Assembly: GCA_963921275.4 (NCBI GenBank)
Contig: OZ001293.3
Span: 544,001-608,000 of the forward strand
Origin: an uncultured Hormoscilla sp.
GTDB taxonomy: Bacteria > Cyanobacteriota > Cyanobacteriia > Cyanobacteriales > Desertifilaceae
Reading direction: 5' to 3'
Length of the DNA: 64,000 nucleotides
In this document: one piece after another, positions 21,667-61,657 of the stretch
Layout: each line of letters begins with the position of its first letter
Numbering within the stretch: position 1 is the first letter of the stretch
Translations under genes and position numbers: made by a program
Notes under the pieces: generated by a model
What the model saw: the letters and a program-made list of their open reading frames with translations, nothing else
Database searches by the model: none
What the model was told of the DNA's origin: nothing

Positions 21667-23305
21667 CATACTCCCTGTCAACAGAAAATAATTATTAATT
21701 AAATATAGAAGTAGCCGATAAGCGAATGAAACTATAGGAGTGAAAAAAATGGATATAATTTACGGGACGGCTGGAAATGATGCGATCGTCGGTACAGCAG
21801 AGAATGACATCATAGTTGCCAGAGCTGGAAATGACGATCGTGTTTCCCTTTCAAGGAGATGACGATCGTGATTGCCAGCACGGGTAATGACTCGATAGAC
21901 GGTGGCGAAGGTGATGATATCATCAGATCGGGTCCAGGTAATGACCAGCTTGATGGTGAAAACGGTAATGATATTCTCGATGGAGACCAAAACAGAGATA
22001 CATTAACAGGAGGTCCGGGCAGAGATATATTTGTGCTCAGTTCAGGAGAATATCTGATTAGGGACTTTGTTGATGGTGAAGATTTGCTCGGGTTATCAGA
22101 TGGTATAACCTTTAATCAGCTGCTGATATCTACAGGAATTGGTGCTAATGCAGGGGACACGAATATTCTGCGTAACGGTAAAGTATTGGCAAGATTAGAA
22201 AATGTTAACCCCAGGAAGATCGATCGGAATGATTTTACCACGAACCTGACACCAATATCAACACCGACACCGACACGCTGCGCTAACACCGACACCGACA
22301 CACAGCTACGCCTGCGCTATCAAATCCAGGCAGATTAGCATTTTCTCAACCTACCTACAATGTCAGGGAAAATGTACTCACTGCTACAATTACAGTCGCG
22401 CGATCGGGTGGTAGCGATGGTGCAGTTAGCGCAAATTATAGCACTTTCAATGGCACAGCTACAGCGGGATCGGATTATTTGTCTACATCAGGGAGACTGA
22501 ATTTTGCTGATGGAGAGACTAGGAAAACTTTTACCATCTCTATCCGGGATGATAATGTGGTTGAGGGGAACGAGACTGTTAACTTGCTTTTGAGCAACCC
22601 TAGGGGTGGGGGAGATCTAGGGACGCAAAATACTGCTACGATCCCTTCGGGATGCATGGCAAAAACCCCTCAGGCATCGCTCTGACAATTGTAGATGCCG
22701 AACCCATCAGTTCTGGCATTAACATTGGACCAACAGCACAAGAGCAGGAAATGATGGAGATGCTCAACCGGATGTGCTTCGATGTCTGAGGGATGCATGG
22801 CAAAAACCCCTCAGACATCGCGAACCCATCTGGAGAGTTGGGCATTTTGGTTAACAGTCTTAACCCCATCTCTTCACCAGATCCGGATGTCAACAGGGTG
22901 CTCAATTTCTTTAATGTTGATGGTAATCTATTGGCATCCCAGTGGAGCAGTCTGACCCCAGCACCCCCACTTGCTTGGTCTGAAGAGCTGCACGATGCTG
23001 CTAGCGGTCATGGCCAGCAGATAATTGCTTGGGATCGACAGTCCCATCAACTCCCTGGCGAGCAGCCTTTAGGCCAGCGGATTGCTAATGCTGGGTATAA
23101 TAATGTTTCTGGCTATGCTGAGAATATCTTTGCTTTCTCAGAGTCGGTCTTCTACGGTCACGCTGGGTTGGCGATACTGCTGCGCAGTCGCTGCGCGAAC
23201 GACTGGGATGACAGCTTGACGGGGATCCAAAACCCGCCCATCGATGCCTTCCGGACGCACGGCGAAAACCCGGAAGGCATCGCACCGTAATATTATGATG
23301 AGCAG

Positions 23306-25061
23306 GTGCGATTCGTTTAACGTAAATTTCACCGGTGATAACCGGTAAAAGGGACCGCTAGCAGGGTAACACAAAACCCTGACAACTTACAGATGATGGT
23401 GGTGAAAGCCCACCCCTCCAGGTGTAGGAGTGACAGCACATTCCCGACGGTAGCGATGGCATCAATCCGTAAAGCGGGAATGAAAGGCGACTGGTAGCCT
23501 ACACCGGTCCGATACCTGAGGGGTTGCCTGCGTTGCATCCCGAAGGCATCGAAGCCAAGCAAGTAGCCATGATGAGCATAAAGCAAAGATTTGCAGCGTC
23601 GTAACATAAAACCAGTGAAATAAGGCTGACGGCCCAAAAGGGAAAGGATACAGGTCGCTGGCGGTTCTGCTCACCGACCAGTAAGCACCGACAACAAACC
23701 CGGCGTAAGGAATCCATCCTTAGCTACAACTAATCACCTGTAGGAACGAAGTAACCTGATCATGTACTCTCTATCGAGTCGGTGCGATTCGTTCTAGCCT
23801 AACGTGGTCAAACACGGAACGCTAGCCCGGTTTCATTAGCCGGGAACTCTGACCGCATGGGGGTTAAATTCCCCTCCCCCCAGGTACGGGGGTGACACCG
23901 GTCCTCGGTGCTACGAAGCGACATCATCGTGGTGCTAAGCGAGGACTCAAATGTAGGATAACTGGCAGCCTAAGCCGGTGACGCCGCTAGGAAAGATATC
24001 CAAGGTTAGAGCAGGCAAACATGTGCAAGCCTCGTTATAAGGAACCAGCGAAATAAGGCTATATGCGCTGGCCTAAAAAGGAAATGGTAGCTAGTATTAG
24101 TTTTAGACTCTGGCTAATATAGTACTCAAATAGCTCCCGGGGTATAGTGTGGACCTAAAGGTATCGCGAAATGTTGTTAGGGAACGAAGTAACCTCTCGT
24201 GTGCTGTCCATCAGGACAAGTTAGATGTTAAGCGCAAGCCACGGGGGGAGGGATGGCCCAAGAAGCGAATGCCCGGGGTAATTCCTGGGATAACATCTAC
24301 AGTAATGTAGATGATGCTGGGTAGCCAGCGCTGACGTGGGTCGGTGATACTAGGAAGCTGCTGGAATGAGTAATCCTAAAAAGCCACGGAACTAATCCGA
24401 AACGCAAGTGGAGGATAAGGTATGGATAACTGGTAAAACTGACTTGAAAATGGTGATACTAACGGTTATCAGAACAACCACTCGCTAAACCAGGAAAGGG
24501 AAGAAAAGACAGGCGGCAAGGGCTAACGGAAGTAATTCCTATTAAGTCTACCTATGAAAAGGGCCTAGTACCCAGTAGCCGGATGTGGTGAAAATCGCAA
24601 GTCCGGTTCCTCAAGGGAGGGTCGGGAAGCGATTCCCGGCTCGACCCCATCCATAGCCACCAAAGGCGCAACCTCTGCCTTCATCAGGCAGGTCATGATT
24701 AGGAAGGATTTCGTGGAGAAGCAAACGCCTATCTGTAATGGACAGGATAAGCCGACCACGGTAATGTCAAATGTGAAGTTGTAAGTAGCAGTAAAAACCT
24801 TATGAGCACGGTAATCAAACCAATGAATGAATGGAGGACAACCCCCCCTGGCGAAAGCTGGAAAGGAAAGTCTTTTGCTTCTGAGAATTTACAGAGCGGC
24901 ACAACGTGGCGACAACTGCTACGATGTAAAAAAAACTGCCAGCGATGGTAGTCGCCGTATCCATGACAGGGATGGCATTACTGAGGAGCCGGATGAGGTG
25001 AAAAGCAGATCGTCCGGTTCTGAAGACGAGACGGGGTGGCAACACCCTGGCTTAGTTTAAC
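23306..25061 (+). mobile_element. ORF-less group II intron, outer member of twintron (887 nt without the inner intron)
   Basis: 5' GTGCG; EBS1 CTGCTC pairs perfectly with exon end GAGCAG; DV GAGCCGGATGAGGTGAAAAGCAGATCGTCCGGTTC at ~24986; 3' end TTTAAC; removal gives in-frame AG|G. Confidence 0.9.
23782..24650 (+). mobile_element. ORF-less group II intron, inner member of twintron (869 nt)
   Basis: 5' GTGCG; DV at ~24577-24609; 3' CTCGACCCCAT; near-identical to 29872-30740. Confidence 0.93.
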
Positions 25062-25466: not shown

Positions 25467-27317
25467 GTGCAACCCGTTGACTTTACTACCCTAACTGCTG
25501 CTTGTGCTGAACTGCGCGATCGCATGCTGCCCGCCAGACTAGAACAAGTCTATCAGCGCGATCGGCACAATCTGGCCCTAGCATTGCGTACCCTGAGGGG
25601 CCGAAATTGGCTAAATATCTGCTGGCATCCCCAAGCCGCACATATATGCATCGGCGACCCACCGCCGAAAATCCCCGATACCTTTACCTTTAGCGACCAA
25701 CTCCGACATCAACTGCATGGTCTGGCCTGGGTGGCCATTGAACCAGTCGCCCCTTGGGAAAGGGCCTTAGACCTACAATTTGCCAAGCGTCCGGGAGAAC
25801 CAGCCCTCTGGCACCTGTACGTAGAGATCATGGGCAAATACAGTAACGTAATTTTAACCAATCAGCAGAACCAGATCGTCACAGCCGCCCACCAGGTAAG
25901 CGAAGAAAAATCCAGCGTCCGTCCCATTCTCACCGGTCAGCCCTACTCACTGCCACCAGCCCTGACTAATCCTATTCCCAATTTAAGCGAATCTCCCCAA
26001 CACTGGCAAGAGCGAGTGGGATTAGTTCCCGGACAGTTGTGGCGTCAACTGCTCAAATGCTATCGCGGACTGAGTCCAACCCTGGTAAAATCAATGGTCG
26101 CAGCAGCGGGGTTAGAGCCAAATCAACCTACCGATACTCTCACAGATGTAGAGTGGCAGCAATTGTGGAAATGCTGGCAATTCTGGTTGCAGGCCCTAGA
26201 AACAGCGCAATTTCATCCGGGCTGGACAAAAGAGGGATATACTATCATGGGTTGGGGCGCAACGGCACCAGTCCCTTCTACCCATGAATTGCTCGATCGC
26301 TACTATACCAGCCAGTTGAACCGCCAGGAATTCACCCAACTCCGCCATCAACTCCTGCAAAAACTCGATCGCCTCTTAGAAAAGCAGGGTCAAAAAGCCC
26401 TGACATTCTGGGAACGGTTACAGCAATCGGACTCCGCCGACGAGCATCGTCAACAGGCTGACTTGCTGATGGCCTACTTGCAAGAATGGCAACCGGGAAT
26501 GACATCCATTTCCCTGTGCGACTTCCAAACAAATGTACCCATTACCATTCCCCTAGATCCCAAAAAGAATGCTATCCAAAATGCTCAATCCCTTTACAAG
26601 CGTCACCAGAAGCTGAAACGGGCCCGCAGTGCAGTTGAACCATTATTCAACCAAGTGAAGGTAGAAATTGAGTATCTCGAACTGGTGAAAGCTACCGTCT
26701 GGCAACTGGATAGCTACGAGGCTAAGGAAGATTTACAAACTCTAGCAGAAATTCGCGAAGAGTTAATCGGTCAGGGATATTTGGACAAGTCCGAACAGCC
26801 CCGCCTTCGATGCCTTCGGGATGCTAGCGGCTGCGCAGCCGCTGCGCTAACGCAAAAACCTACGATGCCCGAGGGGAGCGCTAGTCGCACTACCCCTCGG
26901 GCATCGCTCAGGCATCGACGCCATACTGATACTTCTGTTCCTTATCGTTTCCAGACACCCAGCGGTTTTGAACTGTTAATCGGTCGCAACAACCGGCAGA
27001 ATGACCAGATCTCTTTTCGGATCGCCAATGACTATGACCTCTGGTTTCACACCCAAGAAATTCCTGGTAGTCACGTGCTCATGCGGTTACAACCTGGTAA
27101 ACTACCCGATGACGTGGATTTGCAATTTGCCGCCGACCTGGCAGGGTATTATAGTCAGGGACGCCAGAGCGATCGGGTGCCGGTGGTGTACACAGCCCCC
27201 AAGCATGTTTATAAACCCAAGGGCGCCAAACCTGGTATGGTCATCTACAAGCAAGAGACTGTCCTCTGGGGGCGGCCCCAACAGGCGAGCGGGCGAGCGG
27301 TGATTGAAAAGATATAA
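25467..27317 (+). CDS. rqcH: NFACT/RqcH (FbpA) ribosome quality-control protein with a 36-aa in-frame insert
   Basis: MQPVDFTTL, EIMGKYSN, NAQSLYK, GRNNRQND and WFHTQEIPGSHV motifs. Confidence 0.9.
   Translation: MQPVDFTTLTAACAELRDRMLPARLEQVYQRDRHNLALALRTLRGRNWLNICWHPQAAHICIGDPPPKIPDTFTFSDQLRHQLHGLAWVAIEPVAPWERALDLQFAKRPGEPALWHLYVEIMGKYSNVILTNQQNQIVTAAHQVSEEKSSVRPILTGQPYSLPPALTNPIPNLSESPQHWQERVGLVPGQLWRQLLKCYRGLSPTLVKSMVAAAGLEPNQPTDTLTDVEWQQLWKCWQFWLQALETAQFHPGWTKEGYTIMGWGATAPVPSTHELLDRYYTSQLNRQEFTQLRHQLLQKLDRLLEKQGQKALTFWERLQQSDSADEHRQQADLLMAYLQEWQPGMTSISLCDFQTNVPITIPLDPKKNAIQNAQSLYKRHQKLKRARSAVEPLFNQVKVEIEYLELVKATVWQLDSYEAKEDLQTLAEIREELIGQGYLDKSEQPRLRCLRDASGCAAAALTQKPTMPEGSASRTTPRASLRHRRHTDTSVPYRFQTPSGFELLIGRNNRQNDQISFRIANDYDLWFHTQEIPGSHVLMRLQPGKLPDDVDLQFAADLAGYYSQGRQSDRVPVVYTAPKHVYKPKGAKPGMVIYKQETVLWGRPQQASGRAVIEKI
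26809..26916. mobile_element. Composite hairpin mini-element insert (42+24+42 bp), in frame in rqcH
   Basis: Outer GATGCCTTCGGGATGC..GGCATC holds a 24-nt SDR-like piece and a 42-nt GATGCCCGAGGGGAGCGCTAGTCGCACTACCCCTCGGGCATC. Confidence 0.85.
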
Positions 27318-27432
27318 TAGGGCTAATTTATGCTTTAGCTAACATCAGATAAAATCTTTTTATGTAAAGTTCAGAAAATTTATGTAAATTTTTATGACAA
27401 AAAATTAGTGTATGTTGCTACAATATATTTAA

Positions 27433-27543
27433 GGTGATTCCCGGAAAAGAAAATACCTGGATGAACTCCAAAGCACGACGGTACCCGAGAGGAAAGCCAA
27501 ACCTGCATGTCGGATCTTGGTACCTTTTTTTTCAGAAATCACC
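27433..27543. mobile_element. 111-bp MITE with TAA target duplication
   Basis: TIR GGTGATT../..AATCACC flanked by TAA; absent at the homologous site in the duplicate (~62410). Confidence 0.8.
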
Positions 27544-29694: not shown

Positions 29695-31100
29695 TTAATG
29701 TAGGTCTGATTGCCAGATGCAGATGTAGAGGCGATCGCGCTTAGTTTCCCACTTAATGATGCCTTCAAGGGGACCGAGGGTAAAGGAGTAGTGGGCGGCG
29801 TCTCCTGGGTAGTGCGACTAGCGCTCCCAGGAGACACCGGGGGACTGGCGAGTCCAAACCTGTTGGAGTCCGTGCGATTCGTTCTAGCCTAACGTGGTCA
29901 AACACGGAACGCTAGCCCGGTTTCATTAGCCGGGAACTCTGACCGCATGGGGGTTAAATTCCCCTCCCCCCAGGTACGGGGGTGACACCGGTCCTCGGTG
30001 CTACGAAGCGACATCATCGTGGTGCTAAGCGAGGACTCAAATGTAGGATAACTGGCAGCCTAAGCCGGTGACGCCGCTAGGAAAGATATCCAAGGTTAGA
30101 GCAGGCAAACATGTGCAAGCCTCGTTATAAGGAACCAGCGAAATAAGGCTATATGCGCTGGCCTAAAAAGGAAATGGTAGCTAGTATTAGTTTTAGACTC
30201 TGGCTAATATAGTACTCAAATAGCTCCCGGGGTATAGTGTGGACCTAAAGGTATCGCGAAATGTTGTTAGGGAACGAAGTAACCTCTCGTGTGCTGTCCA
30301 TCAGGACAAGTTAGATGTTAAGCGCAAGCCACGGGGGGAGGGATGGCCCAAGAAGCGAATGCCCGGGGTAATTCCTGGGATAACATCTACAGTAATGTAG
30401 ATGATGCTGGGTAGCCAGCGCTGACGTGGGTCGGTGATACTAGGAAGCTGCTGGAATGAGTAATCCTAAAAAGCCACGGAACTAATCCGAAACGCAAGTG
30501 GAGGATAAGGTATGGATAACTGGTAAAACTGATTTTAAAATGGTGATACTAACGGTTATCAGAACAACCACTCGCTAAACCAGGAAAGGGAAGAAAAGAC
30601 AGGCGGCAAGGGCTAACGGAAGTAATTCCTATTAAGTCTACCTATGAAAAGGGCCTAGTACCCAGTAGCCGGATGCGGTGAAAATCGCAAGTCCGGTTCC
30701 TCAAGGGAGGGTCGGGAAGCGATTCCCGGCTCGACCCCATCCGAGTTGGAGTTCCTGATTTATCTGACAGCCGGACATAGCATCGAAGGTTTTCAGCACC
30801 TCCTGAAAATCAAACTCAGTCACAAAGGAAGCTTCGGTTTGGCGAATCACTCCAGAATTGCCATCAAACAGGAAGCCCAAGCTGACTCGATCGCGAATCA
30901 GTTCATAGAAAACAGCATCTGTATGGGCCAAATAGCCTTTCTCAGTCCCAGTTGGAACGCCAAACATGCGCAGGACATAACTTTTGTGAATTCCTGGTTG
31001 AAATCATGGAATTCCTACGCCGATAGGCATCTGACGACAGACCTGTTCGTGCATCTGCCAAGGAGTTAGTTGCAGTAATGAAGTTTCTTCTACAGGAACT
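29695..31100 (-). pseudogene. Remnant of a conserved cyanobacterial C-terminal domain (often kinase-associated), interrupted by an antisense intron and a hairpin element
   Basis: ..VSLGFLFD..IRQTEASF..QLG|LQQVWTRQS[42 bp]HYSFTLGPLEGIIKW..RLYICIWQSDLH*. Confidence 0.6.
29872..30740 (+). mobile_element. ORF-less group II intron (869 nt), second copy of the twintron inner intron
   Basis: Same length as 23782-24650 with about 3 substitutions seen; DV AGCCGGATGCGGTGAAAATCGCAAGTCCGGTTC. Confidence 0.93.
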
Positions 31101-33303: not shown

Positions 33304-33459
33304 ATATAGTAAGCGTGACATGTCAAAGGTAAGGGTGACATGCCATATAGTAATGGTGACATACCATATAGTAATGGTGACATGCCACATAGTAATGGTG
33401 ACATGCCACATAGTAATGGTGACATGTCACATAGTAATGGTGACATGCCACATAGTAAG
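33304..33459. repeat. 21-bp tandem repeat GTGACATGCCACATAGTAATG, about 7 copies
   Basis: Directly visible; no spacers between units. Confidence 0.9.
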
Positions 33460-35563: not shown

Positions 35564-36332
35564 TTGACCATTGGTTGGCCAACCCTGTCCCTAGCAGAAT
35601 CTGGTCTACCAGCGGTCGATGGACTGCCAACAAGACGAGAAGGAGGTGGCGCCCGCAGTATTTGTGTAGGCGGTGTTCAGCAGATGACTGCACTGGTGCC
35701 GAGCATCAATTTGGGCAAAACAATATCCAAAGATCCTACCTTCTTTGTCTATATTCCACCTAATAGGGCCCAGGGAGCAGAGATTGGTCTGATGGATTCT
35801 GAGGGTAACCAGATCTATAGCACTATTATTGAGCAGAATGTTGACTCTGGTGTGGTGGGCTTTAATCTGCCCGATCTCCCAACCCTGGAAATGGGTAAAA
35901 ATTACCAGTGGTACTTTCAGTTTATTTGTAATGATGACCTTGGTGCTTTTGTAGAAGGGTGGGTGCAACGAGTCGAACTGAGCGATCGCCTCCAGAGTCA
36001 GTTGCAACAGGCGGACTCACGCCAACGGGCCGAAATTTATCAACAAGAGGACCTTTGGTACGAGGCCCTGAAAACTCTGGCCGATCGCGTAGCGTGGCGC
36101 AGCCATGTTGCGCCGCTTGCATCCGTTCGATGCCTCTCGGGGCGAGGTGTCTCCTGGGAGCTCGATGTTTCCCGGGAGCGCTAAGCGCACTACCCAGGAG
36201 ACACAGGAGCGCTAATCGCACTACCAGAGAGGCATCGACGACTCAACCCTAGAGGCCCAATGGGAAGAACTCCTCACACAAGTCAATCTAAAACATTTGG
36301 CCCAACAGCCCGTTGTCAACACTGCTTTGTAA
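35564..36332 (+). pseudogene. DUF928 protein disrupted by a 22-nt SDR-like insert and a 108-bp nested hairpin insert
   Basis: RREGGGAR, PTFFVYIP, YQWYF, VEGWVQRV and LWYEAL; the C-terminus TLEAQWEELL lies in another frame. Confidence 0.8.
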
Positions 36333-36653: not shown

Positions 36654-36799
36654 AACGCTAGAGCATCGGTCAAGAAACCGGGTTTCTGTTACCAAAACGT
36701 CAATATAAGTGCTATTCCTGACGAGAAACCCGGTTTCTATCTCATCTTGACCGACTCTATAGTCCATGTCAGCCGGTGTCAATTAATTTAACCGGTGCA

Positions 36800-36889: not shown

Positions 36890-37195
36890 GTCATTGCGAA
36901 GGGGGGGAGTTTAAACCAACATTGTGAGTATCTTCGCTTATATTCCCCCCGAAGCAATCTCCCCGACGAGGTAGGAGATTGCTAGCTGCTGCGCAGCGGC
37001 TGCACGAACGGGGGGGTTAACTCAATTGAGAATAAGTTAATCGCTACTTCTGTGTTCCCTGCTGCTGCGTCTCCTGGGAGCTTGATGTCCCTCGGACGCA
37101 CGGCGAAACCCGGGGGACATCATCTGAGCACTACCCAGGAGATGCAGCGAGCTACTCGCACTACCCGGGGAACACAGCCCCCCCCTCGCAATGAC
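36890..37195. repeat. REP-like GTCATTGCGA..CTCGCAATGAC element carrying nested hairpin mini-elements
   Basis: Homologous to 13751-13936 with extra inserts at ~36985 and ~37050-37175. Confidence 0.7.
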
Positions 37196-38569: not shown

Positions 38570-38739
38570 TTGACTGCCTCTCTATTATCAGGAATGGGCG
38601 ATCGCCTCCTATATTGTAGCACATAAATCAGGGTGCATCTCACTTTTGCTGCTGGCATATTCGCTCCGGAGGCCAGAAACCAGGTTTTGACAAAAAACCT
38701 GGTTTCTTAATCCCAAATTGAGATGCACCTCATAAATCA

Positions 38740-39227
38740 TTTGAAAACACCTGTCATGATATTAATAGTTAAACTGTCTCCATCGAGGGTTTTAATCACC
38801 AGATATTTACCAAACACGGACATTTCTATTCCCTGGTCTGGTAAGTCCTCACTAAATCGGATAGAACCACCTGGGTTAAACAGCAGCACTTCCTCTTCCG
38901 TCAGTACCGCTGTTACCCGATCGAGCGTCAGAATTTGTACTATAGGTTGTTAAGGGTAGTGCAACTAGGAGGCGACCGCTTTGCAGACAAATACAGGCTA
39001 ACTGTTGATCTACGCCGATCCAAACTGTATTTTGTTCCTCCCATACTTGAATTATCGGCTCTAGTGAGGAACTGCTTCGATATCTCCTGTTGTGCTCTTG
39101 TCCCAGGGGACTCGGCACACAGGAGATATCGCCAACTCATTCCGTAACTACCCAATCTTTCTCCCAAGTCTAAGATAGCAAATTTGTGAGAATAGTCATG
39201 GACAATTATCTGCCTCACTCCCTCCAT
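38740..39227 (-). pseudogene. Hypothetical protein, frameshifted
   Basis: Overlapping ORF fragments 38940..39227 and 38876..39118. Confidence 0.4.
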
Positions 39228-40795: not shown

Positions 40796-41689
40796 AAGTG
40801 GAAGTGGGGTAACCCCAGCCGCACGAACGATCGAAAGCTAGAGTCCTTATTTTTCAAGTGCTTTGATACCATGCGGGACTTACTCGATCGCCTGCAAGGA
40901 CCATTTGGCTTGCGAGATGAAGAAGCGAATCAAGTGATGCTGTCCGCGGAGCCAATCTTTGGCCAACTCCAAGCTTATCTAGAGAGTTTAACGGGTAGGG
41001 TTGCCGAACAGCCAATCAAAACAGATGCTGCTTCGATGTCTCTGGGGAGCTTGATGTCCCCCGGACGCACGGCAAAACCCGGGGGACATCATCTGAGCAC
41101 TACCCCAGAGACATCGCCACCTAAGCCAGATTTTGTGACTCAGGTAACGGCGGTCCTCAGAGAGATGTTGCAGCTGTTTAAGCAAAAAGCTAATCCTGCT
41201 AATCGTCAACAGCTGGAACAATTATGTAGCAGTCTCCTCAATCTGGGCGAAGATACGGAAAGCTGGCAAAATCTAGTACAAACGGCTCAGACTGCTATTG
41301 CTAATCCTAACTGTCCCTATCTCACCCTGGCTCCCCTGGTGATTAAGGAACTCAAGCAGGCAAGCGAACAACTGCAGGCTGGCCAAGCTAACCAAATCGC
41401 TCCTTCTAAAAACTTGCAACGCATAGCGGATAATTCTCCTTCTCAGCGAATTATCCTAGTTGTCGAACCAAAGGCAGCCGCAGAAACTCTGGTCAAGGCT
41501 TTCAACAAAAAGCAGCTATCACAATTTATGAAGGCGCTACAAACAACCGCTAAAACCCTCGACACCTCCCCATCACCCAACGTCCCCCGGTCGGGAAAAG
41601 TCCCCCGGGGCGAGGCATCCCCCGGGAGCGCTATTCGCACAAAAAGGGAGACGCCTCGCTCGACATCCCCCCAGAGGGAGACGCGCTAA
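40796..41689 (+). pseudogene. Hpt/CheA-like protein fragment, 5'-truncated, with hairpin inserts
   Basis: DRKLESLF..LQGPFGL and VLREMLQLFKQ resemble cyanobacterial Hpt-domain proteins; 81-bp in-frame insert at 41035-41115. Confidence 0.6.
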
Positions 41690-41845
41690 CCGCATCACCC
41701 ATCAGACATCATAACCACACCACCCGTCAGACATCATAACCACACAAAAAGGGAGACATCACCATCACACCACCCAGCGCAGTCCCGTAGAGGCGAGCAG
41801 GCATCGCAGCAAAGTAGTCTGTTGTCAATTGTCAGTTGTCAGTTG

Positions 41846-45830: not shown

Positions 45831-45911
45831 CCATTTCTAGCATCTGGTGGGCGGTGCCCACCCTACATAAATTGCCATTTCTAGCATCTGGTGGGCGGTG
45901 CCCACCCTACA
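45831..45911. repeat. Direct repeat with REP-type GGTGGGC..GCCCACCCTAC palindrome (2 copies)
   Basis: CCATTTCTAGCATCTGGTGGGCGGTGCCCACCCTACA occurs twice. Confidence 0.8.
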
Positions 45912-47289
45912 GTGCTCCTGCTGCTGTTTGGTCGAGAATACTGCCACTAATGTGGGTAGTAATATTATGAGTTTCTAGCACGGGTTTTCCTTCCAGTCCT
46001 TTGGGGTAATCTATCACCGTAACTGCACAATTTCCCTGCTTAAATTTCCAGAAATGCTCTGGAGACAAGCCAAACAATTGGCAGAGAACAGCTTTATTGA
46101 TCGCGTCGTGGGCAACCACTAGACCTATACTGTTAGGGGGCGCCGATTTAACGATTTCATTCCAAGCTGCCATTCCCCGTTCCCAGACCTGCTGCAAGTT
46201 TTCTCCCTCCGGCATTTGCACCGTTGCCGGATCAGTTTTCCATTGCTCTAATTGACCTGGAAACCCTTTTTCAATTTCTGCTTTTAACTTCCCTTCCCAC
46301 AAACCGTGACTTATTTCTCTGAGTCCCTCAGACAGTTGCAGCTGCAATTGTGGGTGATGCTTTCGATGCCTCTCGGGAGCGCTAATCGCACTACCCGAGA
46401 GGCATCGGAGAATAATTTCTGCTGTTTCCTTGGGGCGTAACATGGGACTAGAAAAGGTAAAATCAATCTTCACATCTTTGAGAAACTCCCCAGCTTTCTG
46501 GGACTGTTGGCGCCCGGTTTCATTCAGCGGAATATCATTCCATCCCTGAAAGCGTTTCTCGCGGTTCCATTGTGTTTCCCCGTGACGCACTAGCAACAGT
46601 CGGCAACCCCGATGTCCTTCTCGCGGTTTGGGGAAACTCTCTCCCATATGAGATGTGAGATTCATCGATTCTAGCTGCACTGCTTCGCCCAAATCTCCAG
46701 CAAAATTCAGCACGCTGATGCTGCAGTTAGACTGCTGGAGCGAATGGTAGTAAGCTTGTGGAATTTCCACAGCGCTTGCCAGCAAGCAACGGTTAATGCC
46801 GTTGTGCGCCACTACCATAATTGTCTTGCCTTGATGGCGAGGCAAAACTTCCTGCCAGAATTTCTTTGCTTGCTCGTAGAGTGCTAAAACTGGATAATGT
46901 TCTCTGTTTCCCTCTGGTTCGGGTACTAGCATGTGAAATTCATCGGGACGTTCCTTCCAGCAGCGGTAGTCGGCGGCAAATTTTTCCTTTACCTCATCCC
47001 TGAGCATTTCTTCCCAGAGAGGCAGGTCGATCTCCCTCAAATTATCTACCTCACGCAATTCCAGCGATGGCTCTAAGCAGGATGCGATAATTTCTGCCGT
47101 GCTTTTCGCCCGTTGCAGAGGACTACAGTAGATGGCATCAAAGCTGAGACTCTTCAGGGCCGCACCCACTTTGCTGGCGTCGGCACGACCTTTTTTCGTT
47201 AAGACTGAATTGTCACACCGGCCCTGAATGCGGCCCTCAATATTGTAACTGCTTTGACCGTGACGGACTAGAATAACGCGAGTAGTCAA
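45907..47289 (-). CDS. Two-domain histidine phosphatase (phosphoglycerate mutase family) with a 42-bp in-frame hairpin insert
   Basis: Two RHG motifs (LVRHGQS, LVRHGET); insert at 46365-46406. Confidence 0.92.
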   Translation of the reverse strand: MTTRVILVRHGQSSYNIEGRIQGRCDNSVLTKKGRADASKVGAALKSLSFDAIYCSPLQRAKSTAEIIASCLEPSLELREVDNLREIDLPLWEEMLRDEVKEKFAADYRCWKERPDEFHMLVPEPEGNREHYPVLALYEQAKKFWQEVLPRHQGKTIMVVAHNGINRCLLASAVEIPQAYYHSLQQSNCSISVLNFAGDLGEAVQLESMNLTSHMGESFPKPREGHRGCRLLLVRHGETQWNREKRFQGWNDIPLNETGRQQSQKAGEFLKDVKIDFTFSSPMLRPKETAEIILRCLSGSAISAPERHRKHHPQLQLQLSEGLREISHGLWEGKLKAEIEKGFPGQLEQWKTDPATVQMPEGENLQQVWERGMAAWNEIVKSAPPNSIGLVVAHDAINKAVLCQLFGLSPEHFWKFKQGNCAVTVIDYPKGLEGKPVLETHNITTHISGSILDQTAAGAL

Positions 47290-47534
47290 GAGTTCTCTCC
47301 TCCGTATTTTGCGCGACAGCTGGATTTACATATGCAACGCCAATATTTTACCCTGTCTGGGGCACTGGGAGCTTGATATTCTTACTACTCTGATGGTTTC
47401 ATCGGTATCCAGAAACCCGGTTTTGCCGGAATTACCGGGTTTCTTATACGCAGTCCGCAGCCCATGCGCTATTCTTTCATTAATATGCTCCCAAGGCACT
47501 TGCTCCCATATAATGAACCGCCATCGGGTGATCG

Positions 47535-47884
47535 CTAAAACCCAAAATACTTGCGCAATATAGCCTTCGCCTGGTGAGCGTAGTTCAGTTTCCAGTTGAC
47601 CCAACTGTTGTACCAGTCTGACTTTATCGAAGGTCATTGGTTCGACACAGACTAACAAACTATCTACCGATAAACCATTTTCTGCCGATGATGGTACGAC
47701 CACCACAGCCGGAGAAATTCTAGGATCGTTCGGACTGGTTGAGGTAAAGGGCAAAACAGTCACCTTGGTGCGCTGGGCATTATACAGAAGCAGAAATTAC
47801 CAGGGCTGGACGTGCGCGTGCGAATTTCCGTGCCTACTGACGGTTCAAACCTGACTATCCAGATACTTCCTAATCCATAATCGC
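47535..47884 (-). pseudogene. PemK/MazF toxin, frameshifted with start lost
   Basis: IWIVRFEPSVGTEI, RPALVIS (other frame), VTVLPFTS and TFDKVRLVQQLG. Confidence 0.8.
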
Positions 47885-48141
47885 TCTTGCGGTGTCCCCT
47901 GGGAGCGCTACTCGCACTACCCAGGGGACACCGCTCTGCCATTCTTCATCCCAGCCTAAATCTAGTTCATCAACCAGTCTACAAGCCTCCGCTAGGGCCT
48001 TGTCTTCCTGCTGCTGCCGCCATTGTTGCAAGAGAGATTCAATCAAGGCGCTACGGTTGTCTACCTTTTGGTCTAGGTATGCCAGCAAGTCATCGGGCAT
48101 GGGCGGCCATTTGCTACGATGAGTCCTACTTTGATTAGCAT
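47870..48141 (-). pseudogene. CopG/RHH antitoxin with a 42-bp hairpin insert
   Basis: PDDLLAYLDQKVDNRSALIE; lies upstream of the mazF remnant; insert at 47891-47932. Confidence 0.7.
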
Positions 48142-48215: not shown

Positions 48216-49769
48216 ATGACTATCAAGCGGTTTATTTTAGGTGCCCTCACAGTTTTGGCTCTGGCCCTAGTTGGTCTGTCTCTGTACAGCAGCTGGAGTC
48301 AGCCTCAGTTTCAAGGTCGTCTGGAACTCTATGAAACTAATCTCTTACTTCAAGCTAGCGAGTGGCAAGGCGGTTCTGACGATGGGCGTGAGAACTCTGT
48401 ACGCGATCTACTGCTAGGGTCCGGCGTGACTGAAACTGCCTTACAACAGTATCTCGATGCCCGCGATCGGGCCCAGTCCTTACTAGACCAACTCCAGATG
48501 CAACTCCCACAGTCCGCCGATCCCAGCATCCCCGGGCAAATATCTCAGCTGCACAATGAGATCGATCGACTGAATCTGCGCCTCGGCATTTTACAGATAG
48601 CTACCGATCAAACCTTCGATGCCGTCGGGGTGTCGCGCTACTCGCACTACCCCACGATGCGCGAAAAATCGCGCATCGAGGCCGCAATGGATACCTGGGA
48701 CAATTTATCTGACTCTTCAAGGTTGGTTAATACTGCTATCCTCTTAGAGGGACTTTGGAAAGATCCTCCTCGCTTCCCCGCTGATACTGAGCTCCAAATT
48801 AACGAACAGTTGGACGGATGGTTCCGCTATCAAGCTTTATTGCGACTTTATCAATTACAGAAACGCCAGGACTTATTTGGGGCCCTGTCCGCTGCGGAAC
48901 AAGAAGTGGCCCAGGAAGTTTTTTTCAAGTTAGTGCTAGCTAGCGGTATTCAAACTTTAGCCGCAGTCTTGGGGACAGGATTGTTAATTTTTATTCTGGT
49001 CCAGCGGCTGCTGAAAGGTAAAGAATCCCTCTGGACTCAGAATGTCGATCTTTCCTGGTTCGCCCCTTGGGATCTAGAGACGATTTTGCAGGTACTTGTC
49101 CTCGGGTTTTTCTTTGTCGGACAAATTCTTATCCCCCTGTTCTTGCAGTTGCTGCCCATCAACGAAGCTGCTGCTGGCGCTACCACTCAGGCTTTTTATA
49201 TTCTGGTAAATTATCTGCTACTCGCTTTGGGGGGCTTGTTAGTATTAGTGCTATCTGTAAAGCAATTTTTACCCTTGCCCAGCCCTTGGTTTCGTTTTGA
49301 TTGGCTAGAATATCAATGGTTAGGATGGGGACTGGGTGGCTTTCTGGCCGCCATGCCTTTGGTGATTGCCGTATCTTTGATTAATCAGCAGTTCTGGCAA
49401 GGACAGGGGGGCAGTAATCCCATTCTGCCTCTCGCTTTGCAGGGTCGCGAACCCTTGGCGATCGCCCTTTTCTTCTTGACTGGTTCGGTAGCTGCACCTA
49501 TCTTTGAAGAAATCATCTTCCGAGGATTTCTCTTGCCCTCTTTAACTCGCTATTTTCCCCTTTGGGGGGCGATCGCCTTTTCGAGTCTCTTGTTTTCTGT
49601 CGCTCACCTCAATCTCTCGGAAGTCCTGCCCCTGATGACTTTGGGCATGGTGCTGGGGTTCGTTTATACCCGATCGGGCAATCTCCTAGCTCCCATTTTA
49701 CTCCACAGTCTCTGGAATGGCAGCACCTTATTCACTCTCTTTCTCCTCGGCAGTGGTGCCAATGGTTAA
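48216..49769 (+). CDS. CPBP (CAAX/Abi) intramembrane metalloprotease with a 60-bp in-frame insert
   Basis: APIFEEIIFRG, FSVAH and LLHSLWN; insert at 48618-48677. Confidence 0.92.
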   Translation: MTIKRFILGALTVLALALVGLSLYSSWSQPQFQGRLELYETNLLLQASEWQGGSDDGRENSVRDLLLGSGVTETALQQYLDARDRAQSLLDQLQMQLPQSADPSIPGQISQLHNEIDRLNLRLGILQIATDQTFDAVGVSRYSHYPTMREKSRIEAAMDTWDNLSDSSRLVNTAILLEGLWKDPPRFPADTELQINEQLDGWFRYQALLRLYQLQKRQDLFGALSAAEQEVAQEVFFKLVLASGIQTLAAVLGTGLLIFILVQRLLKGKESLWTQNVDLSWFAPWDLETILQVLVLGFFFVGQILIPLFLQLLPINEAAAGATTQAFYILVNYLLLALGGLLVLVLSVKQFLPLPSPWFRFDWLEYQWLGWGLGGFLAAMPLVIAVSLINQQFWQGQGGSNPILPLALQGREPLAIALFFLTGSVAAPIFEEIIFRGFLLPSLTRYFPLWGAIAFSSLLFSVAHLNLSEVLPLMTLGMVLGFVYTRSGNLLAPILLHSLWNGSTLFTLFLLGSGANG

Positions 49770-50279
49770 TTCGCGATCGCCTTCCACTTGCAAGAAACCG
49801 GGTTTCTACTATAGATTTTGGTCTTTTACCAAGGTTGACTTATAGAAACCCGGTTGCTGTCCCCTGATGCGGGCGAGCGCCGGTCAAAAACTCGCGATTT
49901 TTCGGACCGTCCGCGGGCCGATCGCCGGTTTCGATCGCGGTGCGATTAATTCAGGCAGGAGCGTCTTGAGGGTCTATACTTAAATTTAGACCCGAGAATT
50001 TTTTGCCTAGTCCCTAGTCCAAGCAACAACTTCAAGAAATTTTTATAGTCAGGAGTAGTTATATATAGATAAAAACTCGATTTTTAATTTTCAACAATAA
50101 ATTGTTAATTGCTAATTGCTATGATAGAATATCAGCATGATTAACCTTAATATGTTCGGCTGTAAACTGACGACTGACTGGCTAGACGCCAGTTATACCA
50201 ACTGACCACTCACAACTAGCGATCGAGTCTAACTCGTCAAGCTGATAATGCAATAATTATTTGCAGATGTTTTTTGGCA

Positions 50280-50780: not shown

Positions 50781-51478
50781 TGAGCGTCTTGCTGAGACAT
50801 ATTTATCTTAGCCAATATTCACTCTCTTCATCCTCAATTGTTGTTGCTTGTCATTTTGCTAGAAACCGGGTTTATACCATAGCCTTTGGGATTTTACCAA
50901 GGTTGAATAATAGAAACCCGGTTTCTGTCTCCTGGTCCCAGCGATCGCTCCTGCTACGGGGCCAGTCACAGAGAGGCGATCGCCTCTCTGTGTATAAATT
51001 GGGGTTTTGCTTTCATCTCATCGTTTGTCCGAAGAGATTAATAACAGTAAGTTTGTTATTAATGTTTTGTCCATCCTGTAGGTCTTCGCTGTAGAGAATA
51101 TCGCAACCAACTTCTAAGGAACTGGCAATAATGAGGCTGCTGTGTACCACGGGTAGTGCGGGTACGATGTTCCCCCTTTTGTGCGATTACGATGTCTGAC
51201 GGGTAATGCGATTAATGGGCCATGCAGTCTGGAGCTTGTTTTTGATTTGGGTAGATGGTGGTTGACTGAGAGGTGTACCTCACTAGGGTGAAACCCGCTA
51301 TAATACCATTCTCTCGTTCCCTGACGAAGGCAGAGAACGTCTTCGGGAGGCTCTGCCTCCTGACAGAACACGAGGCAGAGCCTTTGATCATCGTTGCTAG
51401 CTAGAAACTAGCAACGATGGAGCGCTTTCATATCTCGTTCCCATTAGCAATTCACAATTAGCAATTCACAATTAGCCA

Positions 51479-52405: not shown

Positions 52406-52698
52406 CCGTTTGTAATGCCGGTTTGTAGTAAGGACTTTAGTCCTTACCTTATAATTCCTAATGCTGATATGAATACACCATCTCACTTCCTGGTCTCTTG
52501 TTGCTGTTTCCCCTGGAATGGACCATCCGCTTTCAAAGTCCTGTCAGCTATTGGGACGAGCGCTACTACGGACGAGAGTTTAGCCAGTTTGAAGCTATTT
52601 TAGACATTTATATTGAAAGCTTAACAGACAGTTTGGTGCATCTCTATTCCAGAAACCAGGTAACTCTTAACTTACCTGGTTTCTTAATTTAAAAGTTA

Positions 52699-57312: not shown

Positions 57313-57409
57313 GAGCTTAATGCTGAGTGTGGTAGATATAATAGTACGTCAGAGCAGAGCACAAACATAATGTAGCTCAAGTTTAGCCATAATTGATAAA
57401 TCAATAATA

Positions 57410-58732: not shown

Positions 58733-61276
58733 ATGGGTGCTAAAATGAAAACAATTCAGGATTTGACACGCCAGGTAGATCGGTGGTGGCGAGTGTACTT
58801 CACGGAAGCCCCGCGATCGCGCCAACCAGTGCGAAATAAGCTGTGCTCTAAGAAGAGTAAAGTGCCAGGGACTGGAAAAGAAAACAAAAAACAAACCAGA
58901 AGCAAAAAAAAAGCCCATCCAGGGGCAGTATTGGTGCTAGCAGTGGTGTCGCTGACGAGTACAATAGGCTACCGCTTATACAACGCCCCGAAACTATCGT
59001 CGGAAACGATCGCCCCAGAGACGATATCGGCTCCCTACACGGCGGAGATACCCGATCGCCAAGCTACGGAAGCAAAGCGCCAGCGAGAGCGTACAGGTGC
59101 CATCCCGGTCTTGATGATCGATGAAGTGGTAAATAAACAGGTTTACCAGAAGGTAGAGGAAATTCTGGACCAGGGAAATGAACTGCGACGGCAGGCAGGT
59201 GAATTTCCCTTCGTGGGGCCAGAGTTGCTCTCGTTCGACACCCAGCAGCACCTTCGTCAAGCCCAGGAGTGGGAGTGGCGTATGGTACTGCAAGGGGTAA
59301 ATAAAGCCCCGACAGAAGAGGAATCGCAAGAGTCGGCGACCTTGTCCCCAGAGGCAGTAGCAGCTAATAATAGCCAAGCAGCAACAGATGAGAAAATATC
59401 ACGCACAGAGCAAGATCAAGCGATATTTGAACTGCGATCGATCGAGCAGTCGGAAAAGTCGGAAAAGTTAAAAGCATTGCTTGACCAGATAGCCCAAGTG
59501 CGTCAGGGTTACGCGCAAGCATTAAACGAGATTAAAGCGCTCCAGGTAAAAGATCGAGCAACAATATACGATGTTAAACTGCTGGAGATGTCCGATGCAA
59601 CTTGGGACCAAACAGTTAAAGGCATCCAGGAAAGCACAAGGAGGATGATGGCGCAAGGGATCCCCAGAGGATTGTCCGATAATCTGCTCAGAAAGGCGAT
59701 CGCGTTACATGTGTCCGGTTCAGTGCCAGAGTCCACAGCAGCTTTGGCGATGAAACTGCTGCCGAGGGTGCTAAAAGCAAATCTGATTGAAGATGCTGAA
59801 AAAACCAGGCTACAAGCAGAACATGCAGCTTTATCTGTCGAAACAGTGGTGATATCAGTCCTGGAAGGTGAGGTGATTGTGGAGGCGGGCGATCGCATCA
59901 CCAGACCAGAATTTGTGGCGATCGATTATTTTGGCTTGTCTCAGCGGCAGGTAAACTGGAAAGGGTTGCTGGGGTTTGGCATGCTGGTAAGTGGGGCGAT
60001 CGGGGTATTTTGGGTGATGGAACGAAAGTTTCACCCGGGAATGCGCCAGCGAGACCAGCTATTAGTGTTGTTACTGACTCTGACTGCGCCATTGCTGGTA
60101 GTTTTAAATTTGAATGCTGCTAGCTTGCCAGTAATAGGGCTGTTGATGGGCAGTTTTTATGGTTCAGCCCTGGGGGTGACAGTAGTCGGACTGCTGAGTT
60201 TTGTATTGCCGATCGGCATGGAAATAATTAGCCTGAGTGATTGGCTAGCGAGTGTCGCCGGGGGGATACTGGGGGGTTTGATGGCCGGGAGAATGCGATC
60301 GCGAGAGGAATTTGCACTGTTAGGGGTAGCAGTGGGATTGACTCAGGGAGTTGTCTATCTGACGGTCACCCTCATTATCAGCGCCGCAGCTTCTGTAGTC
60401 TGGCCGCCGTTGCTAGTTGCTGCTGGGATCCGCAGTCTGGGAGGCTTAGCCTGTAGCATTATCGCACTGGGTTTGAGTCCTTATTTGGAACATGTGTTCG
60501 ATTTAGTTACCCCGGTGCGTTTGGCAGAGTTAGCGAATCCGAACCGCCCCTTGTTGCAGCGCCTGGCCTCGGAAGCCCCAGGAACATTTCAACACACCAT
60601 GTTTGTGGCGACTCTGGCGGAAGCAGCAGCCCGAGTTTTGGGTTGCAATGTGGAATTAGTGCGGGCGGGGACTTTGTATCATGATATCGGCAAGATGCAC
60701 GACCCGTTGGGGTTCATTGAAAATCAAATGGGCGGTCCGAATAAGCATGATGAGATTAAAGACCCCTGGAAGAGTGTAGAGATTATCAAAAAGCATGTCA
60801 GTGAAGGATTGGTAATGGCTCGCAAGTATCGGTTGCCTAAGTCCATTGAGGGGTTTATTCCAGAACATCAGGGAACGATGCTGATTGCCTATTTCTACTA
60901 TCAGGCGAAGCAGATGGCAGAAATTGACCCTAGTATAGTGGTGCGGGAGTCGGATTTCCGCTACGATGGTCCGATTTCCCAGTCCCGAGAAACGGGGATT
61001 TTGATGCTGGCTGATTCCTGTGAGGCCGCCCTGCGATCACTCAAGGATGCGACCTATCAGGAGGCGCTGGGAATGGTGAATAAAATCCTCAAAGCGCGTT
61101 GGCAAGACAATCAGTTGGTAGATTCAGGGTTAAAGCGAGAGGAAATGCCGATAATTGCGGATATTTTCGTGCGGGTCTGGGAACAGTTCAATCACAAACG
61201 CATTGCCTATCCGAAAGGGGCACTAAATTCTTCCCTCTCTAAAGAGAAGAACCGCGAACCTGTCTGTTCTAAGTAA
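58733..61276 (+). CDS. 7TM-HD/HDIG phosphohydrolase (PgpH-like)
   Basis: EAPGTFQH, YHDIGK, FIENQ, EHQGT and MLADSCEAA; TM block. Confidence 0.9.
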   Translation: MGAKMKTIQDLTRQVDRWWRVYFTEAPRSRQPVRNKLCSKKSKVPGTGKENKKQTRSKKKAHPGAVLVLAVVSLTSTIGYRLYNAPKLSSETIAPETISAPYTAEIPDRQATEAKRQRERTGAIPVLMIDEVVNKQVYQKVEEILDQGNELRRQAGEFPFVGPELLSFDTQQHLRQAQEWEWRMVLQGVNKAPTEEESQESATLSPEAVAANNSQAATDEKISRTEQDQAIFELRSIEQSEKSEKLKALLDQIAQVRQGYAQALNEIKALQVKDRATIYDVKLLEMSDATWDQTVKGIQESTRRMMAQGIPRGLSDNLLRKAIALHVSGSVPESTAALAMKLLPRVLKANLIEDAEKTRLQAEHAALSVETVVISVLEGEVIVEAGDRITRPEFVAIDYFGLSQRQVNWKGLLGFGMLVSGAIGVFWVMERKFHPGMRQRDQLLVLLLTLTAPLLVVLNLNAASLPVIGLLMGSFYGSALGVTVVGLLSFVLPIGMEIISLSDWLASVAGGILGGLMAGRMRSREEFALLGVAVGLTQGVVYLTVTLIISAAASVVWPPLLVAAGIRSLGGLACSIIALGLSPYLEHVFDLVTPVRLAELANPNRPLLQRLASEAPGTFQHTMFVATLAEAAARVLGCNVELVRAGTLYHDIGKMHDPLGFIENQMGGPNKHDEIKDPWKSVEIIKKHVSEGLVMARKYRLPKSIEGFIPEHQGTMLIAYFYYQAKQMAEIDPSIVVRESDFRYDGPISQSRETGILMLADSCEAALRSLKDATYQEALGMVNKILKARWQDNQLVDSGLKREEMPIIADIFVRVWEQFNHKRIAYPKGALNSSLSKEKNREPVCSK

Positions 61277-61657
61277 GGGTTCGTAATAAGCACGAAGCGT
61301 GCTTCCCAGGCGCGAAAGCGCCTATAATATCGGTCAAGTATTCTGAGAAACCGGGTTTCTACTTAGCTTTTCAACGATATATAAATGTTAGTTCTAGTGA
61401 CCAGGGTCTCCCTGGTCACTCCCGGTTGAGGCTCTTCCGGTGTCTCCCGGGAGCGCTACTCGCACTACCCGGGAGACACCGGCTCCTGGCCTACCGTTCC
61501 GGAAAAATCGGAGGGCGACTGTTTTTCCGCACTCACGAGAGTAATTACCGAGGCTGCTTTTCTCATTCACAGGAGGCAGCCGCTTCCCAGGACTGAGTAT
61601 TCCCAGGGAGACCCTGGGAACGAGGGTAACGAGGGTATGGTTCTACAGCGACCAAGC

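Follow-up and report, generated by a model that had tools for sequence, protein, structure and literature searches.

Short hairpin repeats recur through 64 kb of DNA from an uncultured Hormoscilla sp. (64,000 nucleotides (nt), scanned over its full length and hereafter called the window), and several of them stand inside apparently intact genes. The question that this locus raises is whether these hairpins are mobile insertions and, if so, what unit is inserted, at which sites and by which route. A sequence-only reading of the window had proposed a family of 42- and 39-bp mini-elements (classes A and B) that insert in frame at CG dinucleotides and are moved by an enzyme not encoded in the window. 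Comparison with related DNA and proteins shows that this description was largely right, with the insert length, the CG target and the copy in rqcH corrected. The hairpin mini-element family is real, recently active and modular; the family and its insertion rule are apparently undescribed.

Hormoscilla is a sponge-symbiont cyanobacterium of the Gomontiellales (Gomontiellaceae). The window is recognisably cyanobacterial because HIP1 palindromes abound in it, and the best protein matches of its genes are Hormoscilla proteins. A genome scan with the exact pattern GGAGCGCTANTCGCACTACC, using one genome per species, returned at least 77 loci (L-numbers below), and among the matches listed all lie in four Hormoscilla metagenome-assembled genomes (MAGs). 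Two loci, L055 and L062, correspond to parts of the window as orthologues, with 90-99% identity. Among the plasmids of PLSDB, a 48-nt query had no match.

Filled sites, empty sites and the inserted unit

The class A core, GGGAGCGCTANTCGCACTACCC, has nine matches in the window at up to three mismatches, against 0.00 expected from 100 shuffles of the window; the class B core has five against 0.13 expected, a number reached in 0 of the 100 shuffles. All eight copies listed by the earlier reading are present at the positions and with the lengths (42, 39 and 40 nt) that it gave. A hairpin scan, a covariance model built on 49 copies and direct reading located further ones, namely two of class A, four nested clusters, a degenerate array, a degenerate copy, two nested class B hairpins of 38 nt and a member of a third class, C, of 52 nt (Table 1). 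Across the window and the listed loci, at least 84 exact class A cores reduce to 56 copies with unique flanks, comprising 25 with perfect 13-bp stems, 11 with one mismatch and about 20 that are chimeric or nested.

The hairpin elements are true insertions and are polymorphic between close relatives, as is seen in four pairs of filled and empty sites at the DNA level. L055 carries 45 extra nucleotides (GC, the 42-nt hairpin and G) at the window's GCC^GATG (47686/47687). Conversely, the window copy at 47891-47932 is missing from L055, with a net difference of 45 nt and substitutions at the junction in the pairwise alignment. Clean 45-nt indels separate L073 from L012, with flanks 97.8-100% identical, and L072 from L076, with flanks 97.2% identical upstream and 88.6% downstream. 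The 40-nt variant at 23511..23550 is absent from a related stretch of L020 (75-79% identical; a paralogue or an orthologue), where it faces an imprecise gap of about 41 nt, and this case was not used.

Three further empty sites were inferred from protein alignments together with the window DNA. In the histidine phosphatase, the insert of 15 amino acids (aa), RCLSGSAISAPERHR, is absent from the orthologue P0002 (89-92% identical) and from eight other cyanobacterial orthologues, while P0001 (97% identical) has a 17-aa version. An AlphaFold2 model of this phosphatase (mean predicted local distance difference test score, pLDDT, 83.3) drops under 50 over residues 301-313, a segment that coincides with the insert (about 295-309). 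The CPBP protease has a 21-aa insert, FDAVGVSRYSHYPTMREKSRI, that is absent from P0242 (94-98% identical) and from eight of the nine other aligned proteins; P0241 carries a 16-aa version. The 37 aa added to rqcH are likewise absent from the Hormoscilla orthologues P0121-P0123 and from seven other cyanobacterial proteins. The aligned host proteins of other cyanobacteria thus do not share these peptides, and the four DNA pairs and three protein alignments agree with the proposal that the peptides are inserted. We also considered insertion of the core alone into a pre-existing palindrome, and discarded it on the grounds that the empty sites have neither arms nor core.

In every comparison the gain in length is 3 nt more than the hairpin itself (measured between its flanking C and G). 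Class A thus adds 45 nt (five cases), a 45-nt variant adds 48 nt (P0241) and the 108-nt composite in rqcH adds 111 nt. The inserted unit is therefore not the 42 or 39 bp proposed earlier. Nor does the claim that lengths are multiples of three hold throughout: it fits class A (42) and class B (39), and it fails for the nested class B copies (38), the variant (40), class C (52) and one cluster (88). The extra three nucleotides are placed differently from case to case, as TTC[hairpin] in the phosphatase, CPBP and rqcH genes (from the proteins and the window DNA), as GC[hairpin]G in L055 and as A[hairpin]GA, equally readable as [hairpin]GAA, in L073; the L072 junction reads [hairpin minus its first G]GACA. 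Across the three clean cases at the DNA level, the junctions can be placed with an ambiguity of 0, 1 or 2 nt, and no target duplication is constant. Models with a fixed duplication (42+3, 43+2 or 44+1) each fail in at least two clean cases.

The elements had been said to sit between C and G, and this is so for 38 of the 56 unique-flank copies (G at +1 in 52 of 56). Among 32 stand-alone intact copies the counts are C16 at -5, C16 at -4, T17 at -3, T16 at -2, C29 at -1 and G31 at +1, which gives the asymmetric consensus ccTTC, hairpin, G. Insertion at CG with a 2-bp CG duplication, as first suggested, is not general: C^G spans the insertion point in three of the seven empty sites, each being CC^GA (one seen in DNA, two inferred), is adjacent in one more and absent in three, and no consistent duplication accompanies it. 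The flanking C comes with the element, in its TTC leader, in the three protein-inferred cases, and the G is often the target's own. The bases upstream of the seven insertion points (TGCC, ATGC, ATCG, TGCT, AACC, CGCC, CTCT/CTGT) share no common word. Insertion into HIP1 (GCGATCGC), as in SDR5, was rejected, the flanks not being GC..GC and the empty sites lacking the whole hairpin.

Copies in genes are frequent, with 16 of the 56 unique-flank copies lying within stop-free spans of at least 240 codons. Ten of these 16 are read in forward phase 2 (..PGSATRTT.., a hydrophilic peptide), four in reverse phase 1 (RCLxGSAxSAP) and one each in forward phases 1 and 0, so that four of the six frames are in use; forward phase 0 is open only when the variable loop base N is C or T. 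Twelve copies are forward and four reverse relative to the host gene. The report of in-frame copies in the intact histidine phosphatase, CPBP and rqcH genes stands, and it extends in related genomes to glyS, arc6/ftn2, rodZ, an AMIN-amidase, an HI0933-like oxidoreductase, a GHL10 hydrolase, a caspase-domain protein and ycf66.

Architecture, stem variation and inventory

Classes A and B have the two cores first described. They are not independent, since they and class C have in common a leader (consensus TTC) and a stem foot and differ in their apical modules. The foot reads GAT/GGT/TGT/CGT-G-T/C-C with its complement opposite, or alternatively GAT/GGT/TGT-GTC-YCYY (in summary, TTC + GATGTC). 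The class A apical module is GGG-A-GCGCTANTCGC-ACTA-CCC, spelled out as GGG-A-GCG-CTANT-CGC-ACTA-CCC; that of class B is GG(G)-A-YGC-AYG-GCR-AAAAC-CC(C), and that of class C is longer. Classes A and B share one layout, in which a stem is followed by a 1-nt bulge, an inner stem and a bulge of 4-5 nt. Each of the four bases occurs at the loop position N of class A (C 23, A 12, G 11, T 10). In eight class B copies the Y..R pair is T..A in two, C..G in four and C..A in two, a variation that could simply mean two subfamilies. On its complementary strand, class A forms a 14-bp stem with one bulged T and a 5-bp inner stem with a G·T pair, closed by a GANTA loop. This minus-sense strand folds at -21.9 kcal/mol against -19.2 kcal/mol for the other, and the DNA folding z-scores of all tested elements run from -5 to -9.

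The earlier remark that stems differ between copies and mostly stay complementary is confirmed by covariation. Near-intact copies (at most two mismatches, n = 37) have 30 distinct left arms. The covariation alignment holds 49 of 68 non-redundant copies, after 19 with more than two stem mismatches were dropped, and 13 of its 19 pairs are changed on both sides. Doubly changed cells number 140, against 41.0±6.1 in shuffles, a level that 0 of 500 shuffles attain, and covariation scores 0.423, where shuffles give 0.138 and slid partners no more than 0.102.

This diversity does not arise in place. Between orthologous copies in different MAGs, none of 300 variable stem positions differs, compared with 16 of 1200 flank positions, which rules out in-place hypermutation of the stems. 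In 14 listed loci, a repeat of about 250 nt that resembles a miniature inverted-repeat transposable element (MITE) has a class A hairpin inside it, always at the same position; in ten of these loci the stems of the hairpins diverge by 29.6%, compared with 14.1% for the repeat next to them, and are still complementary. Because the orthologous copies are identical and the MITE-borne hairpins divergent, we conclude that stems diversify between copies. Identical stems also recur at unrelated sites, TGTGTCCCCCGGG for instance three times.

The MITE-like repeat itself, absent from the window, occupies positions of about 900-1250 in L006, L008, L033, L034, L041, L045, L051, L063, L065 and L075, and is also found in L014, L058, L069 and L077. 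It has inverted ends (TCTTGCACCATTC / GAATGGTGCAAGA) and a motif, GGTTCAAACCC, that resembles a tRNA T arm. A tRNA or tmRNA origin of this flank was discarded, as ARAGORN found nothing in the loci or the window and the flank is that of the repeat.

The elements also nest in one another. Class B is found grafted on the class A apex, a palindrome stands in the class B triloop, and in six cases a unit of the 42-nt hairpin plus G lies directly before TANTCGCACTA. Two nests of the window are 91% identical to each other (37060-37136 and 41026-41105). Computational un-nesting gives a net 45 nt for L003 and 43 nt for L018/L052. A short-loop class A as the stand-alone host of nested copies was looked for and dropped, its only match being itself nested.

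The class A copy that had been placed inside rqcH is indeed there, as part of a composite and not alone. The composite, which adds 37 aa (111 nt), is a class B element with a GCTGCGCAGC-type palindrome (net 24 nt) in its apical loop and a class A element (26864-26905, net 45 nt) in its 3' side. Self-BLAST shows rqcH (NFACT) and its 3' flank twice in the window, inverted (25849-27433 and 63995-62409, 97.9% identity across 1590 nt). Open reading frames (ORFs) are present in both copies, the second copy running past the window end. Since the gene is duplicated and the flanks of the class A copies at 26864 and 62939 are identical, these two represent one insertion that was later duplicated with its gene. 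Small palindromes centred on GCTGCGCAGC recur in the window (26830, 36988, 63005, 23167-23200) and in L041, L045 and L061.

Table 1. Hairpin elements and associated features in the window; "new" marks copies beyond the earlier list, and bits are covariance model scores.
Feature	Position	Strand	Context
Nested degenerate class A cluster, 88 nt (new)	13975..14062	-	Apparently intergenic, upstream of an ABC-ATPase gene at 14122; outside the range given by the earlier reading
Class B hairpin, 39 nt	22640..22678	+	Left arm mismatched
Class B hairpin, 39 nt, perfect stem	22781..22819	+	Overlaps start of ORF 22793-23290; -13.3 kcal/mol (plus strand), -15.1 kcal/mol (minus strand)
Class B hairpin, 39 nt, loop variant ACGCACGGCG	23243..23281	+	3' end of ORF 22793-23290
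Variant hairpin, 40 nt	23511..23550	-	Same foot, B-like loop reversed
rqcH composite, 108 nt	26809..26916	+	Inside rqcH (25467-27317, plus strand); class A part 26864-26905 (new)
Class A hairpin	29797..29838	-	Apparently intergenic (no ORF of at least 80 aa across it); one T·G mismatch in stem; 68.1 bits; 28 nt upstream of the 877-bp group-II-intron-like repeat
Nested, rearranged cluster, 108 nt (new)	36129..36236	+	Three class A copies, whole and half elements; 3' end of DUF928 gene (35564-36184); inner copy 36161-36208, 49.7 bits
Three-level nest, 126 nt (new)	37051..37176	+	Outermost class A, then class A variant 37066-37146 (81 nt), enclosing class B 37084-37121 (38 nt, new)
Class C hairpin, 52 nt (new)	39079..39130	+	TTC leader, GATATC foot, longer distinct apical module; -18.1 kcal/mol, z = -7.6; copies also in L018, L027, L052
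Composite, 81 nt (new)	41035..41115	+	Class A variant with class B (41053-41090, 38 nt, new) grafted on its apical part; in frame within ORF 40787-41689; folds as one nearly continuous hairpin, -30.2 kcal/mol, z = -8.7
Array of degenerate nested hairpin remnants (new)	~41560..41800	+	3' end of ORF 40787-41689; content unlike orthologous locus L062; model match 41611-41658, 24.5 bits
Histidine phosphatase gene	45907-47289	minus	Hosts the class A hairpin 46365..46406
Class A hairpin, 42 nt (44 including closing C·G pair)	46365..46406	+	Inside the histidine phosphatase gene
Empty site GCC^GATG	47686..47687	.	45-nt class A insertion at the same point in orthologous L055
Class A hairpin	47891..47932	+	Apparently intergenic, between ORF 47326-47763 and the CPBP gene; 73 bits
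Degenerate class A derivative and small GATGCGCG/CGCGCATC hairpin (new)	48618..48677	+	In CPBP protease gene (48216-49769)
Class A hairpin	61439..61480	+	Perfect 15-bp stem including flanks; 72.8 bits; 163 nt downstream of 7TM-HD gene (58733-61276)
Second copy of rqcH composite	62928..63035	-	Inverted rqcH copy; class A part 62939-62980 (new)

Other repeats share the window. A second family of hairpins, with AGAAACCCGGTTTCT-type arms and loops of about 35 nt, lies at 3511-4261, 36673-36738, 47411-47444, 49793-49858, 50861-50926, 38675-38707 and 52651-52684, and the copy near 47390-47470 falls within an insertion of 78 nt by comparison with L055. A 21-bp unit, GTGACATGCCACATAGTAATG, forms a tandem array in apparently non-coding DNA (33304-33458), and a WD40 gene of 924 aa (53392-56166) consists of tandem units of about 126 bp that are about 90% identical to each other. 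Two short ORFs, 1521-1817 and 9313-9648, have partial matches to a protein kinase domain and a family-2 glycosyltransferase, respectively, which points to pseudogenes or fragments of genes, such as a symbiont genome is expected to contain.

Possible routes of spread

We read the elements as a lineage-specific, non-autonomous family similar to small dispersed repeats (SDRs) and repetitive extragenic palindromic (REP) sequences, mobilised in trans, recognised by structure and filtered by selection in genes, and give this reading a probability of about 0.55. Mobilisation in trans is suggested because no transposase family was found in the 66 window ORFs, as the earlier reading had anticipated, and because the sole transposase among the 125 ORFs of the listed loci is of IS1 type. 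An enzyme encoded elsewhere would read the folded single strand by its foot and bulged geometry and not by the letters of its stem, which would explain why stems differ and yet stay complementary. Since the complementary strand gives the better fold, it is probably the active one. Integration probably takes place in DNA that is transiently single-stranded, a target suggested by three of the four kinds of nesting junction, which lie at or next to the host's apical loop. Selection would then remove genic copies with a frameshift, a stop or a disruptive peptide, so that hydrophilic loop insertions of 14-17 aa remain in intact genes.

Two tallies bear on strand: 15 independent element loci were tallied in the window, of which 12 share one orientation (p = 0.035), and near-intact copies have eight C·A/A·C mismatches against two T·G, read on the loop-forward strand (p = 0.11). 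GC skew was abandoned as a guide to the replication strand, since its sign flips inside the window and the orientation of the elements does not. The hints of a single strand fit a single-stranded DNA route of HUH type and may also fit an RNA route.

Several points weigh against the reading just given. No Y1/HUH gene, whether RAYT or IS200-type, occurs in the approximately 214 kb examined of genomes of at least 6 Mb; mobilisation in trans and the single-strand route are themselves inferred, and both strand tallies are weak, the orientation count coming from one 64-kb window where it is confounded with gene strand. For covariation, the pre-filter to at most two stem mismatches (49 of 68 copies) raises the percentage paired, kinship among copies can beat shuffles even without structure, and the inner stems are invariant in the sample because the search pattern fixed them. 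The restriction of the family to the genus rests on the at least 77 listed loci and is not established. Junctions are heterogeneous, with no single cut-and-join rule for all seven cases, and one nested case is net 43 instead of 45. The constant +3 may belong to the mechanism or may reflect survival in coding DNA, two origins that are inseparable here because all clean cases lie in stop-free frames.

An unlikely alternative is RNA-mediated spread, in which the hairpin would be transcribed within a host or MITE-like transcript and copied back by a reverse transcriptase, for instance that of a group II intron. An RNA-mediated route has reportedly been proposed for the SDRs of Nostoc. The compensated stems would suit selection on a folded RNA, as would the wobble pairs (G·T, or G·U) that one strand appears to tolerate, given the mismatch bias above and the wobble pair of the inner stem; DNA hairpins tolerate G·T too, so that the wobble does not discriminate. 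The missing target-site duplication and nearby transposase also favour RNA, as do the group II intron domain V/VI matches and intron-like repeats in the window, but no reverse-transcriptase ORF was seen in the scan of ORFs from the window and the loci, a poly-A-like or primer-like tail is absent, and genic copies take both orientations (12 forward, 4 reverse).

The intron-like sequence is an 877-bp repeat present at 23776-24652 and 29866-30742 (99.5% identical), with a third copy of about 79% identity at 1802-2635. It ends in Rfam matches to group II intron domain V/VI (30664-30740 and 2558-2635), no reverse-transcriptase ORF was detected in it, and by sequence the copies look like ORF-less group II introns. 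These two intron matches are the only ones in the whole window at Rfam gathering thresholds, and nothing below E = 2 was found over 46300-48000; a known RNA family was accordingly rejected for the hairpins.

A bolder proposal, which we consider distinctly unlikely, is that the elements represent an undescribed, ultra-small and modular kind of mobile DNA. The unit would be 45 nt long (a 3-nt leader and the bulged hairpin) and would pass through a single-stranded, possibly circular intermediate, favouring single-stranded DNA loops, those of its own relatives included. Its arms would be re-matched in each round, leaving the stems free to drift and still perfect, and the driving enzyme would read shape and not sequence. 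The constant length with a variable junction phase would fit, speculatively, a 45-nt circle opened at variable points. If this is true, such a unit would naturally produce loop insertions of 15 aa in an obligate symbiont's proteins.

Less probable still is an origin without transposition, through recombination, template switching, repair capture of hairpin oligonucleotides or gene conversion, with events of 3n length kept in genes. Such processes would fit the heterogeneous junctions, which show microhomology of 0-2 nt and lack a fixed target duplication, the common half-elements and chimeric arms (19 of 68 non-redundant copies have more than two stem mismatches) and the nested case of net 43 instead of 45; the different stems at one position of the MITE-like repeat could be conversion or replacement. 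Sloppy repair, however, predicts scattered lengths, whereas every clean case is exactly the hairpin plus 3 nt, also where the flanks are 97-100% identical; the flank consensus is strong and asymmetric, and the same stems (TGTGTCCCCCGGG, three times) stand at unrelated sites, as if copied from a source.

Least credible of all is that the hairpins are kept for host use, as regulatory or mRNA-stabilising RNA, protein-binding DNA sites or peptide linkers, with spread as a secondary matter: they are very stable in folding, orthologous copies are perfectly conserved (0/300 stem changes against 1.3% in the flanks) and the hydrophilic frame is used again and again, but presence differs between strains at the same gene, the host genes are functionally unrelated, four frames and both orientations are in use, the insert is modelled as a disordered loop, a terminator T-run and an Rfam family match are both missing, and the degenerate arrays resemble decay.

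For the trans-mobilised family that we favour, the hairpin-plus-3 rule, the common foot with exchangeable modules and the change of stems between copies together constrain the mechanism, and make the responsible enzyme findable through co-occurrence across Hormoscilla genomes. The symbiont genome tolerates repeated insertions of 14-37 aa in housekeeping proteins (glyS, arc6/ftn2, rodZ, rqcH). The inserts can serve as strain markers for uncultured sponge symbionts, and they also cause annotation and alignment artefacts. If they are confirmed, few elements with recent mobility directly evidenced by presence and absence would be smaller.

Relation to known systems

The accessible parts of the literature on Hormoscilla repeats (including PMC6520454) and on small dispersed repeats hold no description of this hairpin family, and none was found in work on in-frame palindromic elements in cyanobacteria or in papers citing the SDR work. 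Searching the literature by sequence word gave chance matches only. Identity with a catalogued SDR or REP family is unlikely, to judge from the published descriptions of both.

MITEs derived from insertion sequences (IS) combine terminal inverted repeats with a fixed-length target-site duplication, a duplication that the Hormoscilla elements lack. Elements of the IS200/IS605 type (see also PMC6006769) bear two subterminal hairpins that are unlike each other, and their insertion point lies 3' of a fixed word of four or five nucleotides. They resemble the present elements in having no usual terminal inverted repeats and no target duplication, in the recognition of bulged hairpins and in a preference for single-stranded targets, to which the possible strand bias seen here would correspond. 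They differ in that the whole Hormoscilla element is one hairpin, its junction phase varies and its seven sites share no fixed target word.

Rickettsia palindromic elements (RPE) are repeats of about 100-150 bp in families RPE-1 to RPE-10, confined in the available text of PMC10969869 to the genus Rickettsia, alphaproteobacterial intracellular parasites. On that account, what they have in common with our hairpins is the presence of palindromic repeats in frame in unrelated functional genes, with a peptide that is seemingly compatible with the fold. Unlike them, the Hormoscilla inserts measure 45 nt (15 aa), belong to a cyanobacterial symbiont, have compensated variable stems and nest in one another.

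REP sequences and their REPIN arrangements are mobilised by RAYT (TnpA_REP) transposases of the Y1 HUH type, and REPs tagged with GTAG are known in cyanobacteria, according to the portions available of PMC3733652 and PMC6006769. As described there, they too are short, high-copy, palindromic and non-autonomous hairpins for which recognition of a folded single strand has been proposed, with G·T pairs in their stems and some copies within genes or other palindromes. By the same partial descriptions, the Hormoscilla element is set apart by the lack of a terminal unpaired 5' GT[AG]G (or CGTC) tag, its leader being approximately TTC, by a much longer and perfect stem (13-15 bp) with a modular apex, and by not being predominantly extragenic, with at least 16 of 56 copies genic and three intact window genes occupied. 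GTAG does occur in the Hormoscilla elements, only internally, in the apical part of the complementary strand. RAYT/Y1_Tnp had no match in the 66 window ORFs or the 125 ORFs of the listed loci, which together cover about 214 kb out of genomes that measure at least 6 Mb.

The analogy to SDRs and Rickettsia palindromic elements drawn by the earlier reading thus holds for structure and nesting and for the in-frame genic habit, and fails for size and lineage. Elhai et al. are said to have described, in 2008, SDR1-8 of Nostoc punctiforme and relatives, with units of 21-27 nt. Like the Hormoscilla hairpins, SDRs are very small, dispersed and cyanobacterial, form families of little sequence likeness with one compensated secondary structure, nest in their own copies, ride in mini-transposons and encode no enzyme. 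Comparable nesting is met here at 36129-36236, 37051-37176, 41035-41115 and 26809-26916, and in the 14 listed loci where the hairpin lies inside the MITE-like repeat of about 250 nt. In contrast to SDRs of 21-27 nt, the Hormoscilla hairpins are 38-52 nt long, with a net class A insertion of 45 nt; they do not lie in HIP1, and their in-frame copies in housekeeping genes are frequent. They also belong to the Gomontiellales and not to the Nostocaceae, all of the at least 77 listed loci being in Hormoscilla MAGs, and the accessible part of PMC5861425 reports no SDR-like repeat outside the Nostocaceae. If confirmed, the Hormoscilla family would give the poorly understood SDR phenomenon a second cyanobacterial case, one outside the Nostocaceae.

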